Part shown: one piece after another, positions 25,435-39,000 of the stretch
Layout: every line of letters begins with the position of its first letter
Position numbering within the stretch: the stretch's first letter is position 1
Origin: Gekko japonicus
Lineage: Eukaryota
Direction: 5' to 3'
Assembly (NCBI RefSeq): GCF_001447785.1
Contig: NW_015164664.1
Span: 588,274 to 652,273, forward strand
Length of the DNA stretch: 64,000 nucleotides
Position numbers and translations under genes: made by a program
The notes under the pieces: generated by a model
Databases searched by the model: none
Seen by the model: the letters and a program-made list of their open reading frames with translations, nothing else
What the model was told of the DNA's origin: nothing

Positions 25435-26271
25435 ATGAAGTGGGAAGGCTTCTACTCCCTTGTGATTGGTGTGAACCGTCACTCCACAGCCGTTGGCCGC
25501 ATCTGGCTCTCGGTAGTGTTCATCTTCCGCATCATGGTGTTGGTGGTAGCTGCTGAAAGTGTCTGGGGAGACGAGCAAGCCTCTTTCATCTGCAACACGC
25601 TACAGCCTGGTTGCAAGAACGTCTGCTATGACCACTACTTCCCCATCTCCCACATCCGCCTGTGGGCCCTGCAGCTCATCCTGGTGACCACTCCGGCCTT
25701 GCTCGTGGCCATGCACGTGGCATACCAGCAGCATCAGGAGAAGAAGCTGTTAGTGATGACAGGCCATGGGGATGCCAAGCACTTGGAAGAGGTCAAGAAA
25801 CACAAGATGCGCATTTCAGGGTCCCTATGGTGGACTTATGTTTGCAGCGTGATCTTCCGCATCATCTTTGAAGGAACCTTCATGTACATCTTTTATGTCA
25901 TCTACCCTGGGTATCAGATGGTCCGTCTGGTCAAATGCAATGATTATCCCTGCCCCAACTTTGTTGACTGCTTTGTCTCACGGCCCACAGAGAAGACAAT
26001 TTTCACTGTTTTCATGCTGACCACCTCTGCCATTTGTATTGTCCTCAACGTGATTGAACTGGTGTACTTGCTGGTGCGGGCATGTGCCCGCCGTGGTCAC
26101 CGAAACCCTAACCCATCTTCAGGAAAGGGCTCCTTCCTGGGCCACAAGCTGTCCGAGTACAAGCAGAATGAAATCAACCAACTGCTGACAGAACAGGACA
26201 GCTCCCTCAAGGACATTCTCCGTCGTAATTCAGGGGCACAGGAGAAGACTGACCGCTGTTCAGCCTGCTAA
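25435..26271 (+). CDS. GJB1: Gap junction beta-1 protein (connexin 32), 278 aa, single coding exon
   Basis: [36 protein letters not shown], both triple-Cys loops, Cx32-specific tail [25 protein letters not shown]; adjacent to ZMYM3 as in mammals. Confidence 0.97.
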
Positions 26272-29696: not shown

Positions 29697-30144
29697 TTTG
29701 CTGCAGCTACTGCAGGGATTTTCTTGCCTCTGGTCTTCAGCTGCATACCTGCAGTAATTTCAGTTCTTGAATAGGGCAGTGGCAGTATGTTCCCTGTATG
29801 TTCCCCTTAGGCTAGGGTAGTGCTGCAGAGTAATACCATTTGGTTGTGCTTGCAGGGGCAACAGAGCTAAATACAGGAAAGAGGCAGAGCTGCTACTCCT
29901 GGCCAGTAACTGGTTAACCAGGCCTGGGGCCTCTGTTGCCTTTGGTCAGATTAAACTCAGGCTTTGAGAGGCACAATGGGTACCACCAGAGAACAAAGGC
30001 AGAATGAGCCAGGTCGGCAAACTCAGCACAGGTAGAACCCGCCCCTCCTGGCATCTCACTCCCTTTGTGTTAACAGAAGGTGCTCCAATGCCTCTAATGG
30101 CATCTGCCTGTCCCTCTCTTTCAGGGCAAACAAATGTGGTGCCC

Positions 30145-31080
30145 ATGGGGGACTGGCACCTGCTTGGAAGGCTGCTGGAGAGTGTGCAGGAGCACTCCAC
30201 AGTCGTGGGCAAAGTCTGGCTGACGGTGCTCTTCATCTTCCGCATTCTGGTCCTGGGTGCTGCTGCAGAGAAAGTGTGGGGGGACGAGCAGTCCAACTTC
30301 TCCTGCGACACCAAGCAGCCCGGCTGCCAGAGCGTCTGCTACGACCAGACCTTCCCCATCTCCCACATCCGGTTCTGGGTGCTGCAGATCATCTTTGTCT
30401 CCACACCCAGCCTCATCTACCTGGGCCACATCCTGCACCTGGTGCGCATGGAACAGAAGGAACAAGAAAGCCTGGAAGCTCAGGGTAGCAGCTCCCTTAC
30501 GGGACACCCTAACCCTAACCCCACCAAGGTCTCCATTCGGGATACTCAAGGTAGGATCCGCCTCCAGGGGGCCATTCTGAGGACTTACATTTGCAACATC
30601 ATCTTCAAGACCCTCTTTGAGGTGGGCTTCATCTTGGGGCAGTATGTCCTGTATGGTTTTGAGCTGAAGCCTCTCTACACCTGCAGCCGCTGGCCCTGCC
30701 CCAACACAGTCAATTGCTACATCTCCCGCCCCACTGAGAAAACGATCTTCATCCTCTTCATGCTAGCCGTGGCCTGCCTCTCCCTCCTGCTCAACATAGT
30801 AGAGGTGTACCACGTGGCCTTCACCAAATGCAGGGTGAGACAGTCAGCCAGACACAATCCAGGTGCTGAGGAGGAGGCTAGGAGTCCCGATCCCCAAGGA
30901 CATGGGAGCACTACTCCACCCCGTAGTATCACTTTGCAGTCTAGGGACAAGGTCTCTAAGGGGGAGAGCCCTGGAGCAGGGATGGTGAATGACAGCCCCG
31001 CTTGGGTTGCGAGCCAGAAGCGAGACAGCAAGTGCAGCAAGACTGGCAGCAAATGGAAGCCTGGCGACCTAGCTGTTTAG
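30145..31080 (+). CDS. Alpha-type connexin, GJA3-like (probable gja2/cx39.9 group), 311 aa
   Basis: [50 protein letters not shown], Cys patterns C-x6-C-x3-C and C-x4-C-x5-[11 protein letters not shown]-terminal PDZ-type DLAV; acceptor ctctctttcag at 30124. Confidence 0.93.
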
Positions 31081-33000: not shown

Positions 33001-36000
33001 CTGTGGCCAGAAAAAGAGAAAAGAGAATACTCACCTGGGTGGGAAGCAGAGAGATGGGCACCGGTGGGAGCTTAGCCAGACCCTCCGTTTCTGCAACGCT
33101 TTTCTTTGTGCCTCTGCAGCCTATGTGGGTAACTCCTAGCCAGGGAACGGGATCCACACGGCTGTGCAGAAGCACAGAGAGCCGAACTCCCAACATGATC
33201 TGTCTGCTTAGTGCTGCTCGCGCTAAGCTGGTTTTCAAGCCGGTTGCTTCCACACCCACCGGGCCCCACCAAGCCGCCGCTGCTACTTTTCATGCTCTCC
33301 ACAACCAGTGCCCTTGTGGCCATTTTATTTTTTACTGTTACTGCCCACACCCACTTTGAGGGCGGCCAGCAGTGATGGTCATGACACTGCCTGCAGCCTC
33401 TTGGCTCCACTTCCACTGACAAAAACCTGCCTAAGGCCTCAGCCAACAACGTGGAGTCCCTGCCAGGGCCCCTCACCATTTGGACAGATAAAACTCGTAG
33501 AACTTGACCGGGCAACGCAGCGGGTTCATGCGATTCTCTCGCTGCTCCAAGACCGGTGCTTCTTCCTCCCGCTTCCGCTTGCCGAGGCCGCCATCTGCAA
33601 GGAGAGAGGTAGCTGGGTCAGGGGCTGCCCCCACGGCCGATGGGCAGGAAAAGCACACATGCAGAAAGCGCTCCCTACCTCGCCCCTTCCGGTGCCGTAC
33701 AGGAGCATAGTAGCGGATGCTCACCACCTTGGTGGTGCCCCGTGACGTGGTGCACTTGCGCGACTGTCGAACCACGTTGGTGAAGGAGAGTTGCATGTGC
33801 TCCTCAGCTGTCTGCAGCCCAAAAAACTTGGTGTTGAAGAACATGAGGGTGTTGAGGAGCACAAATGGGGAGTAGACGCCCAGCTGCTTGCACTCCCAGA
33901 GGTGCTCCTCTTCCACGCGAGAGAAGACCGTGTCTGCAAACATACAGGCCAAACGACCTCCGTCAGAGCACAGGTATGGCACAGCTGACCACAAGGCGAG
34001 AGAGAGAGAGAGCTCTGATGAACTGCACTGAATAGCCTGCGGAACTGAACTACATTGGGAGGGGTGGGAGCAGGCTATCCCCTCTGGCAGGTGACCTCTC
34101 CGAGTCCCTGACGCCACTTTGCCAGGCCAAGGCACATGTTCCCTTTTGGATCTGATACAGTGAACCTGCCCCTGCTACCAGCAATTCGCCTGCTTGCTTG
34201 TGGCTGTGTGGGCACATGTGCATGGCCAGAAACAAGTAGGGAGAAGCCAGTCAGTCATTTCTCAACAGTCTGGGGAAAGGGGAGCCCAAACAAAAATTTA
34301 AAAAACCTTGGTTCTATAGCTCGTGTAAAATTTGCATTTCCTACGCTGTACATGAATACGGAAGTTTAACAGCTAGTGCATTGAGCTTGGGCCTAGGTAT
34401 AAAGCACAGCTCATCCTTAGGCCTCAGTGGGTGGTTTATAAAATGCAGATTACAAAGGCCTTCTTCCTGGAGTTACAGTGAAACAGCCTGAGACATTAAC
34501 AGTGCCACTGGCTTCAAGGGGCTTTAGAAGGATGTAAACTCTCCTGAGAGTGGGACTGTAGGATTGCGAAAGGCGCAGCAAGCATACAACACACAGTGAT
34601 TAGTCCTAAACAGGATCAGCTGTTGTTGTTTTTTTTTGGGGGGGGGGAACGAGGACACTCAGAACAAAGGCTGATTTAGAAGCTTCCAGACAAGCTTGGG
34701 GAGGGGGGGACCACAACCTTCTTCCTTGTGGACAGCTGACCGCCTGTTAACCCTTTCCCAGCATCAGGCCCGCTCTCTTCCCAAAGGCCCTCTGAGAATC
34801 CCAGAGTGCCAGAAGAGGAGAACAGGCTTCTGCCCCGCCAAACGACGTACTGTTGGGCAGGATCGTGGTGGGCTGCCAGCCGCTGAGTGTCTTGTTGAGC
34901 TCCTGCACGAAGGTCAGGTAGTAGAGGTCTGTGAAGATGTTCACCATGCGATTGTTCTCTAGCAGATACTGGTGGGCAAGAGTGGGGGAGAAGTACAGAA
35001 TCACGCAGGGAATGCAAACTTAGCCTCACACACACACAACTGTAGCAAAAGGAATTGCAAACTGAGTAACTGCCAAACTCCTGGTATGCACTATTCCCAG
35101 TTGCAGAAGAGCTTTTTTGCCCTGGGAAGAGCCACAAAGAAATGCCTTGCTTACTTGATGCTGACATGCAGGACAAGGCCCTGTTGTTCCCTGGCAAGTG
35201 GGGAGATGATGGGTGAGGCCAGGGCCTTCCTACCTGCTGTATGCCAAGGCAGAGGTAATAGATGCTGTCGGGCTCATAGCGCTCGCCATTGGGCCGGGTG
35301 ACTTCCTTGACGAACTGAGCTAAGCCGTAATTAAGCTCTGCGGCCGTGCAGGCCAGGATGTCCTCTTTGATCCGCATAGGCTTGGCTGTGGAAACAGCAA
35401 CAGGCAGCCTCAGGCTGGGAGGGAGAGACATCAGTTTCCCAGCATCCACCCACCCACCTCTGACATTCCCTTCTTATGCAACCATGGTCACCTTCGACCC
35501 ATACTTACGGCCAAAGCGCAGCTCATCACCTTTGCTCGTTTCGCCACCGGCATACTTGGCTTGCACCCAGCTCTTCCAGGCATTCACGCCATAGGAATAG
35601 TTGAGTGCCGTACAGCTGGGCTGGCTGCTCATGGAGTCCCGTGAACAGCTCTCAGAGAGCACCAGGCGCTTCTGGCCCTACAGTGGGGACAGAAGGCGGT
35701 CTCAGGCAGGCCACTGGTCTATCAAAGTCACTATCAGCTATTCCAGCAGTGGCTCTCCAGGATCTCAAGTCAAGGTGTTTCACATCACCTACTGCCTGAT
35801 CCTTTGAGCTGACGTTCCTGGGGACTGAACCTGGGACCTTCCTGCATGCAAAGCTGGTGCTCTACCATTGAGCCATGACCCCTTCACATGCCCTCTGCAT
35901 GCATTTTTTATCAAGGCTGCAGCCAGAATCATCATCACTGAATAGTGGTTCCTGCGCACCCTGTCATCACAGGCACTTAGATAGTATCTCCAGATCATTC

Positions 36001-39000
36001 CCTTTTAGATTTACCATCTGCTGGCTGCTTCATGATTCTAGATTCAGTGGGTGGTCTCACAGTGCCACCTTGAACTCTCCTGGCCTTTACTACCAAACTG
36101 CCCCATAGTATAATGTTAACACACTCCATGGGGGATGGCTGTATTTGGAGGCAGCAGTTTGTCCCAAATGCTAAACTCCCATTTTGTTCAACCTAAACTG
36201 GTCATTTATTTTGTGTAGCAGAAACCAAGGGGGGAAAAACACCGAACCTAACAATGAACTCCAAAACCAAGCAAAGGTTAGTGAAAAGGAGGGCCAATAT
36301 TAAAACCTTTCCATAAAAGATAAAAAGAGGTACATGTATTTATTAATAATAATAACAAATTTTAAAACATATATAGAGGCCCATTTACAACCAATGTATA
36401 TAAAATATAACAATATCAAGGGCTTACAAAGTTGACCTTACGCGTTTCGGCCAAATACGCCTTCCTCAGAGGTCATACATATGTGGCAAGATGGTTAATA
36501 ATTATTTTCACATTTTTACTTATGAATGCTGTGGCAACACAATCAAAGAAGGAAATTTTTGGACCACAAGTTTATAATCACTGGGCTAGTGATTGCACTT
36601 TAAAGGTCTTATGTGCATATTTACCTTATGCCTGGTGGTTTTACTTTTGAACAATTTACTTTATGGTCCTCATTGAATCTATACTTTGTATATATTTCTG
36701 ATTGTGTTTATGTGAAAATAATTATTAACCATCTTGCCACATATGTATGACCTCTGAGGAAGGCCTATTTGGCCGAAACGCGTAAGGTCAACTTTGTAAG
36801 CCCTTGATATTGTTATATTTTATATACATTGGTTGTAAATGGGCCTCTATATATGTTTTAAAATTTGCTATTATTATTAATAAATACATGTACCTCTTTT
36901 TATCTTTTATGGAAAGGTTTTAATATTGGCCCTCCTTTTCACTAACCTTTGCTTGGTTTTGGCATTTATTTTGTGTTCCACTGCAAATGGCTGGTCGTAG
37001 CCTTTGAAGCTGTTAATGTTGGGAGGAGCTGTAGGGCTGCCCCCTTTCCCAGAGGCTTGCCCAGGCACCAAGGTAATCAATAGAGGTCCTTGTCTGCACC
37101 CCCAGTTCAAAGTACAGTCAACAGCTACAAGAGAGAAGGGAAAATTCTCTAGACTGGTGCTACAGCTGCAGAATTCCCCAACCTCAATTCTCTTTCTACT
37201 ATGCACTCAAGGAGAGCCTTTACCGGCTACCAAAGAGTATTTATGGACTGTTTTTAGGGGTATGCTTTGGGCTTTCATGCAAGTTTTAAACTGTAAATGA
37301 ATTTTATTAACTGTGAATTTTGTAAATGGTTCTCTTTGATGTACACCACCCTGAGCCCGATTTCATAGGGGAGAGCGGTTTAAAAATCTAAGTAAATAAA
37401 CAAACTAGCGGTTTTAAATAAGGCTGGAAAAGAACAGATTGATGATTTTTCTTGCATCTTCTTTGCATTGTTTTATTCTAATGTGGTGCCACTTTAAACC
37501 AACCTAGAGGGTCCTTTCTGAATGGAAAGGTGGGATATTAAATGCCATCGTCCACTTTAAAGTCACAGCAAACAATGCTGTTTCCTCAGCAGCTGGCCCA
37601 CCAGGCTGGGGTGGGGGCAGAACTCACCTTGCGGATGGCACGAGGCAAATCTTGGTCAGTGGATACATCCTCTGGGCCCACCAGGCCACAGTCAAAGAGG
37701 AAATCCACGCTGGGATTAATGTCCAAGGGGTCTGGTGGGGGGAACAAAGAAAGAGGGTCAGCAATATAACAGGTTTCCCAGCTGCATGTGGCCCTCAAGG
37801 CCTTGGCTTACAAGCTCCACTGTACATGCAGAGTGAAGCACTGCCCATCACACACACATCCACCGTTCCTTCTTTCCCTGGTGGGCACTGACCCAGACCA
37901 CACCAATCCTAAAGACCGGGAAAGAGAGCAACTAGCCAGTCATTGGCCTCTCTCCCTTCTTCTTGTGGGCTCTGCAGGTCACAGCTACATGCCCATCTTC
38001 TGCAGGAGGCTTTAGAGGCAATGCCAGTTACTCTTTCTGGGGTGAGGGGCTGTTAGCCAGGGTCCATGAATTTCCCTCCCTGTACCTCCTCCTCCTTCAG
38101 GAGAGGCTGGTGCTCCACGCCCTCAAGCCCAGTGGCCCCAGGCCACTGTTACCCTTACTTTTGGGGAAGTCAGCTTCCAAATCCTGACCCGGCTCATCTA
38201 GCACATTTGCCATCTTGACCGCCATGGCCAACACATCGTCTCTTGCTGGCCCAAACAGGTCACAGTCCTCCAAAAGGCCCTCGGCACTCTGGTTGCTCAC
38301 CAGGTCTGTGAACACATAAATAGGTCAGGCAGCTGCCCCTTAGTAGTGTCTCTGGAAGAGTCCTCACAGACAAGATGATAGTCAGAGACACTCCAGATGA
38401 ATGGTTTCTGCCTACCAGACCACAGAGCTAGAAATGAGTGAAAAGTTTACCCTGCAAGCACGGAAAAGACTATTTCTAATTCCTAAGGACCAGCATGAAT
38501 GTATTAGGAGCAAGGGAGGAACATCCTTTACTGGGGTGCTTGCTGCTCTTGACAACCATCTAATCCCTGTCTTCAGCACCTTTATTCCTTTTTCTCCTTA
38601 TGCTTCAAGCAAAATTATTTGAACACAGGAGTCTTGAAAGCAGGTGAACAGACAGTAAATGGTTAATGCTGTAACCCGGTCTAAGAACCTTGAGTAACAG
38701 AGGATTCAAATGGAATTCTGCAGTTGAGAGTGGCAGTTAGGAGTGGCAGTGGACAGTTGACAGTGAACAGTGAGAGCAAAGCAGACTGTGAAAGGATCAA
38801 GAAGGATTCTGAGTTAGGGAAGTGGGACACATAACCCATCCCTATCAAGACTGAGGGAAATAGCTCCTAGAAGAGGGGGATGATCCCTAGTCTGTGGATA
38901 AGAAAGAAAACTGGAACTTGTGTGAATGTTCCTGACTGCACCAACTTTAGTGTCTGTGAGACCAAGAAGCTTATATTGGTTTCTATAAGCAGAGACTGCC

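Follow-up and report, generated by a model that had tools for sequence, protein, structure and literature searches.

A head-to-head Penelope-like pLTR insertion in a gecko ZMYM intron, likely copied from spliced sense RNA

The insertion and its host intron

The window analysed here is a 64,000-nucleotide stretch of the Gekko japonicus genome (contig NW_015164664.1). Its minus strand carries a gene that Pfam matches to DUF3504, a QRICH1 domain and zf-FCS identify as a member of the ZMYM family. Two connexin genes adjoin it (25435-26271 and 29968-31080, both on the plus strand), one probably GJB1-like and the other alpha-type; given the GJB1-ZMYM3 synteny, the GJB1-like neighbour fits a host that is ZMYM3. 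The insertion of interest occupies an intron of this gene (35678-37627, minus strand; 1950 nt) that has GT-AG ends and whose flanking exons join in frame. The same intron holds a tRNA-like head at 35819-35882 (minus strand), which scored 26.5 bits, under Rfam's cut-off, and drew no call from ARAGORN; it is probably part of a tRNA-derived SINE.

The insertion is bounded by an exact 14-nt target-site duplication (TSD), with its left copy at 36203-36216 and its right copy at 36963-36976. Inside lie two inverted arms. The left arm (36261-36513, minus strand) is sense to the host pre-mRNA and corresponds to the 3′ part of an element's pseudo-LTR (pLTR), truncated at its 5′ side. The right arm (36710-36962, plus strand) is the same pLTR part, ending at an inner, tail-less 3′ end. 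Only the left arm is extended, by a 44-nt Penelope ‘tail’ (36217-36260, minus strand) that forms the element's outer 3′ end; other family copies also end sharply at the tail's outer boundary. The arms are separated by a 196-nt spacer (36514-36709), so that the unit reads spacer, arm, tail in the orientation of the element. The window thus contains two outward-pointing element 3′ ends, one with a tail and one without.

This structure had been described correctly in the original prediction, from the near-identical arms to the spacer, the one-sided extension and the flanking repeat. Exactly two mismatches separate the 253-nt arms (36355/36868 and 36458/36765). Both changes are private, shared by 0/62 and 0/85 other copies, respectively, and one private change in each 253-nt arm fits a young insertion, as had been proposed. 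Both insertion junctions are present in contigs of an independent DNA run (X1) and the left junction also in a second (X6), so the insertion is not an assembly artefact. The empty-site joint was not found in these two runs, which come from one study and of which X6 has no right-flank coverage.

A Penelope-like family with minimal hammerheads

A search of the gecko's own genome returned at least 109 matches to the family, from the 40 of 1050 candidates that were scored. At one locus (L012), a GIY-YIG frame ends ahead of a spacer-arm-tail unit whose arm is 99% identical to that of the window. Two others (L053 and L055) have a frame of 769 aa whose RVT_1 (E 6e-7) and GIY-YIG (E 9e-6) domains both exceed the Pfam cut-offs, and the same exons and arm come immediately after it. 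The arm sequence is thereby linked to an RT/GIY-YIG ORF elsewhere in the genome; the Penelope-like origin that had been proposed holds. EN+ Penelope-like elements are defined in PMC8557442 by a CCHH motif whose two cysteines lie between GIY and YIG; the CCHH motif is present in the protein P0001 as LIYCIICQCQKKYIG followed by two histidines. Judged from its sequence, the insert is the pLTR of an EN+ Penelope-like element with an RT and C-terminal GIY-YIG ORF, and the insertion displays the inverted, 5′-truncated pLTR, the one-ended tail and the TSD of this class.

P0001 also has a zinc linker between RT and endonuclease, CGGCQVC (CX2CxxC). A CX2-5CxxC linker at this place characterizes the Neptune clade and is common to Nematis. 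Because only Neptune and Poseidon occur among the vertebrates sampled, the linker and the vertebrate host together point to Neptune. Among 20 loci taken from 31 matches, none had a tail running into an upstream frame, so the parent's full 5′ pLTR-ORF joint was not seen. A frame of ∼250 aa overlaps the RT frame from upstream in four copies (L053:4476-4560, L055:4452-4536, L061 and L065). All four have a U-UUU-UUA slippery heptamer at the overlap, down to ∼76% identity, which suggests -1 frameshifting; no strong structure was predicted 3′ of the heptamer.

Two other classes were considered for the insertion. A MITE or fold-back DNA transposon, which would carry inverted repeats at each end, be of constant length and have a short TSD of fixed size, was rejected on the asymmetric ends, the variable junctions, the 13-17-nt TSDs and the loss of introns. 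A non-LTR retrozyme was rejected as well: the window pair is head-to-head, and head-to-tail hammerhead arrays are absent from 129 loci.

Hammerhead motifs lie in both arms, at 36748-36790 (plus strand, antisense to the host gene, with cleavage predicted after 36784) and at 36475-36433 (minus strand, sense to the pre-mRNA). Their layout comprises a 6-bp stem I, CUGAGGA, an extra A, a 4-bp stem II, GAAA, ACGCGU and the GUA triplet. The plus copy has every part of a minimal type I hammerhead: the core, stems I and II, an NUH triplet and a palindromic stem III. The minus copy carries the change at 36458, which disrupts stem II at its inner pair and occurs in 0/85 other hammerhead copies. The claim of a full minimal hammerhead in each arm therefore stands for the plus strand and fails for the minus. 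In dimer folding, the intact copy forms a swapped double hammerhead (-35.5 kcal/mol) and the minimum free energy (MFE) dimer of the pre-mRNA copy is another fold. The search with hammerhead models that had been recommended came back empty: Rfam gave six matches in 34000-39000 at E≤10, none of them a hammerhead, as expected for a motif that lacks stem III.

Conservation of the motif points to the element as the level of selection. Eleven positions of the core show no variation among 13 other copies, whose arm identity goes down to 70%, and identity is 0.91 within the motif against 0.77 in the rest of the arm. The cleavage triplet is always GUA, GUC or GUU, and other subfamilies have a fifth stem II pair, G-C or T-A. 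The better conservation and the invariant core argue that selection acts on the element; we infer that the hammerheads would be kept for its life cycle and would be passengers with respect to ZMYM3. According to PMC4209133, single minimal hammerheads show no cleavage as monomers and low cleavage as dimers, and opposite-strand pairs 100-700 bp apart have already been described there. The lizard Poseidon motif required its protein (PMC11167929).

Splice state and copy start across the family

The spacer, given in the original prediction by its length, is not a neutral loop; by its alignment to other copies, it is the spliced 5′ leader of the element. It matches the joined exons of L012 at 194 of 196 positions. 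Leader exon 1 (36514-36569, plus strand) matches exon 1 of L012, lacks its first ∼8 nt and has no upstream TATA box. Exon 2 (36570-36651) and exon 3 (36652-36709), also on the plus strand, follow without a gap. The segments missing at their borders are 90 and 102 nt long in L012, and each is a GT...AG intron with a pyrimidine tract; the first is gone exactly at 36569/36570 and the second exactly at 36651/36652. DNA contigs of other copies run into the intron at the first of these junctions. Exact loss of GT-AG introns, a 5′ end near the start site, an absent promoter and a TSD, all of them present in the window insertion, are together the marks of a processed (spliced) retrocopy.

Splicing of this kind recurs throughout the family. 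Exact 23-mers across junction 1 matched 26 spliced and 4 unspliced copies, with no match for reversed controls. At junction 2 there were 45 exact matches to the spliced form and 31 with the acceptor, ∼10 of which are actually spliced at a duplicated acceptor. This duplication of the intron-2 acceptor is seen in a parent at L051:5930-5950; copies spliced at its first AG are 16-17 nt longer (L113, L114, L117, L119, L121 and L123-L126). The exact-junction matches and 20 ORF matches were assembled into 129 loci, after five duplicates were dropped and one gap-split copy was counted once. Because the junction and ORF queries determined which loci were chosen, these counts do not reflect proportions in the genome, but no query selects on the other variable.

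Splice state is sorted by where a copy starts. Intron 1 is retained in 22 of 22 segments that reach upstream of exon 1 and is lost in 64 of 68 that start within exon 1 (Fisher p 3e-17). The queries agree on this from either side: all ORF-picked copies retain intron 1, and the spliced-junction matches never reach the promoter. Of 16 exact matches across the border between upstream sequence and exon 1, 14 contain intron 1, and the two spliced ones start at -18/-19, below the TATA box. TATAAA itself stands at -29/-30 in 21 of the 22 upstream-bearing copies. Among the spliced copies, 27 of 63 start within -2 to +3 of a single site, which lies 30 nt below TATAAA. The exceptions are four exon-1-start copies with both introns, so the sorting is a strong rule and not an absolute one. 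It points to spliced sense RNA as a template.

A tree of 60 copies that used only the exons and the arm requires 15 changes of splice state, against a shuffled mean of 16.3, and at least six of the changes are forced. Spliced and unspliced copies are thus interleaved, and intron loss recurred in each subfamily.

Several further copies bear on how the family is transcribed and copied. L054:5732-6257 has intron 1 and lacks intron 2. In L068:1683-2250, a spliced 3′ part is joined in one direct run to an unspliced upstream part by a template switch, so two RNAs can contribute to one copy. RNA reads from other copies enter from upstream of exon 1 at 36513 (20 in run X21, 5 in run X22) and enter intron 2 at 36651 (6 and 3, respectively); intron-bearing pLTRs are therefore transcribed. 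A cap-derived G at 5′ junctions was considered and set aside: it occurs in 18/27 near-start and 13/32 truncated copies (p 0.07), and several of the Gs are explained by junction palindromes.

Origin of the inverted pair and relation to known systems

Of 44 head-to-head pairs of the family, 20 carry a clear TSD of 13-17 nt. The tail is at exactly one end in all 20 clear-TSD pairs, and none of the 44 has two tails. In 18 of the 20, no more than 23 nt separate the end of the tail-less arm from the inner boundary of the tail. Each arm has sequence missing from the other in 11 of the 20, the window insertion included. All 13 informative pairs have arms of matching splice state, and six of these pairs are spliced. 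Short palindromes occur at several junctions. L007, L011 and L070, three separate insertions on different contigs, have identical 14-nt target duplications, which apparently represent a single site in another repeat and a possible insertion hot spot. Two loci hold inverted pieces with outer ends away from the tail (L032:4369-5143 and L057:2371-3585), the former resembling LINE-1-type twin priming.

We hold with good confidence that the window carries a promoterless head-to-head pLTR insertion that was likely reverse-transcribed from spliced sense mRNA and is likely inert for its host. The parent pLTR would have been transcribed from its TATA promoter and its two leader introns then spliced out. 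The RT/endonuclease would have nicked both target strands 14 bp apart, and cDNA synthesis would have begun inside the RNA at two tail-bounding sites, one for each nick. One cDNA would have extended nearly to the cap, giving the right arm and the spacer; the other would have stopped after 297 nt, and the ends would then have been joined. A lizard Penelope-like protein has been reported to nick and extend both strands, with two start sites inside the RNA at the boundaries of the tail (PMC11167929). The simplest reading of the inversion is that a single spliced RNA was primed from both nicks, and we lean towards it.

The ORF-bearing copies may have been primed elsewhere, in the transcript's downstream pLTR; intron 1 would still be unspliced there, since a multi-kilobase exon precedes it and the cap is far away. 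Such priming would let only ORF-bearing copies inherit the promoter and the introns. Each transcript would then have two priming zones: a cap-proximal spliced leader that yields dead, intronless stubs, and a downstream unspliced pLTR that yields copies with promoter and introns, with two-nick priming at the tail sites producing the inverted ends. We regard the chances of this combined scheme as about even.

The same spliced sense template would also serve if a single cDNA folded back and copied itself; the resulting palindrome would then have undergone a one-sided deletion at its centre, and the endonuclease would have resolved the product at the inner boundary of the tail. Such a course is possible, if rather unlikely. 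It would account for the 13 of 13 splice-concordant pairs, and the short junction palindromes favour some snap-back. It would also agree with PMC8557442, which ascribes the tail to endonuclease resolution, and with PMC3846280, in which junction palindromes are read as self-priming. However, it requires an extra deletion, of 196 nt here, and again in 11 of the 20 clear pairs. Nor does it give a direct reason for the clustering of the second end at the tail boundary in 18 of 20 pairs, for which two internal start sites provide one (PMC11167929).

An improbable alternative is that the insert acts on the ZMYM3 pre-mRNA, either as a masked self-cleaving element or as a double-stranded substrate for ADAR or Dicer with a regulatory effect. 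In its favour, the arms are predicted to form a 253-bp duplex (∼-475 kcal/mol) in which the sense hammerhead is paired with the opposite arm at a mean probability of 0.98. Long intronic duplexes are ADAR substrates. The lack of an empty allele in the two DNA runs of one study counts on the same side. An AATAAA at 36344 (minus strand, host-sense), inside the left arm, would fall within this duplex. Of the self-neutralising hairpin in the original prediction, the sequestration is thus borne out by predicted folding, and the antisense-first order is forced by geometry: whichever strand is transcribed, a head-to-head insertion presents its antisense arm before its sense arm. A meaningful self-neutralising arrangement is not supported. 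Self-cleavage by the motif assigned to the pre-mRNA is not supported either, as the sense copy has the private stem II mutation and no dimer partner, and its MFE dimer is no longer a hammerhead fold. The geometry as a whole is dictated by the insertion mechanism. Two shallow RNA runs lent no support: X21 (313 reads, ∼3% sampled) and X22 (20 reads, ∼12% sampled) gave no reads in the unique intron flanks and, with nil coverage of the locus, no pile-up of read ends at 36784. Variant places in X21 include four A>G and four T>C of 29, no excess, again at nil locus coverage. The reads in the spacer have non-window alleles (17/17 at 36628 and 38/41 at 36638) and so come from other copies. The insertion is likely inert for the host and a host function is unsupported, although incidental editing of the duplex is plausible.

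Another reading, which we regard as very unlikely, takes the short copies for a SINE-like or retrozyme-like family that replicates independently, is non-autonomous and goes back to a single intronless master. The sharp ends of many near-full copies, 500 nt in length, would suit such a family, but spliced copies stand beside unspliced ones in every subfamily of the tree, the spliced copies have no TATA box, and the examined loci contain no tandem arrays of hammerhead units. Still less credible for these copies is self-priming on an antisense RNA (PMC3846280), which would explain both the head-to-head geometry and the introns kept in ORF-bearing copies, but conflicts with a spliced sense template: antisense RNA of an intron-bearing parent is unspliced at these sites, yet six of the 13 informative pairs and the window insertion are spliced exactly, so the model survives only if the antisense RNA derives from already spliced genomic copies.

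Taken alone, the insertion is ordinary for a Penelope element, and the interest lies in the family pattern. The layout and the ribozymes were already known; the splice-sorted pattern is what appears new. A literature search by title and abstract start returned no account of spliced genomic Penelope copies, and a prior description is possible. As a caution, pairs of intronic hammerheads in such genomes are usually transposon stubs. Among EN+ Penelope insertions, Pen2a_Av (PMC3846280; scheme in PMC8557442) is similar in its head-to-head pLTRs, one-ended tail, TSD and TATA/Inr-like pLTR promoter. The gecko insertion differs in having no ORF between the repeats and one spliced arm, and the family has a 44-nt tail and 13-17-nt TSDs, against ∼31 and 8-10 nt in the Pen2a_Av type. 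The minimal hammerheads of metazoan Penelope-like elements described in PMC4209133 share the core, the extra nucleotide between 9 and 10.1, the G10.1-C11.1 pair and the palindromic stem III; those of the gecko have a 6-bp stem I and a 4-5-bp stem II, nearer to canonical sizes, and one copy is mutated. Non-LTR retrozymes (PMC7229834; bioRxiv 10.64898/2026.07.22.740005) are likewise short, Penelope-derived, hammerhead-bearing, non-coding units that are often intronic, whereas the gecko units show no head-to-tail tandem arrays and no sign of a circular RNA unit.

Two further Penelope-like elements are comparable. Poseidon_Ac of the green anole (PMC11167929) likewise has two favoured 3′ ends at the boundaries of a tail, with a hammerhead lying upstream of them; the gecko family differs by its two leader introns, by the frame that overlaps the RT frame from upstream and by the CX2CxxC linker, which Penelope/Poseidon lack. 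In Drosophila virilis Penelope (PMC2377424), a pLTR intron likewise lies just below the start site and most transcripts are spliced. The gecko elements instead have two introns and common spliced genomic copies; PMC2377424 attributes intron retention to selection, and its available text does not mention spliced genomic copies. The significance of Penelope introns is stated to be unknown in PMC8557442, and PMC3846280 leaves undecided whether the template is antisense or unspliced sense RNA. The sorting of splice state by copy start makes the retention question testable and, if true, priming in two zones of one transcript would explain how Penelope elements keep their introns with neither an antisense template nor selection.
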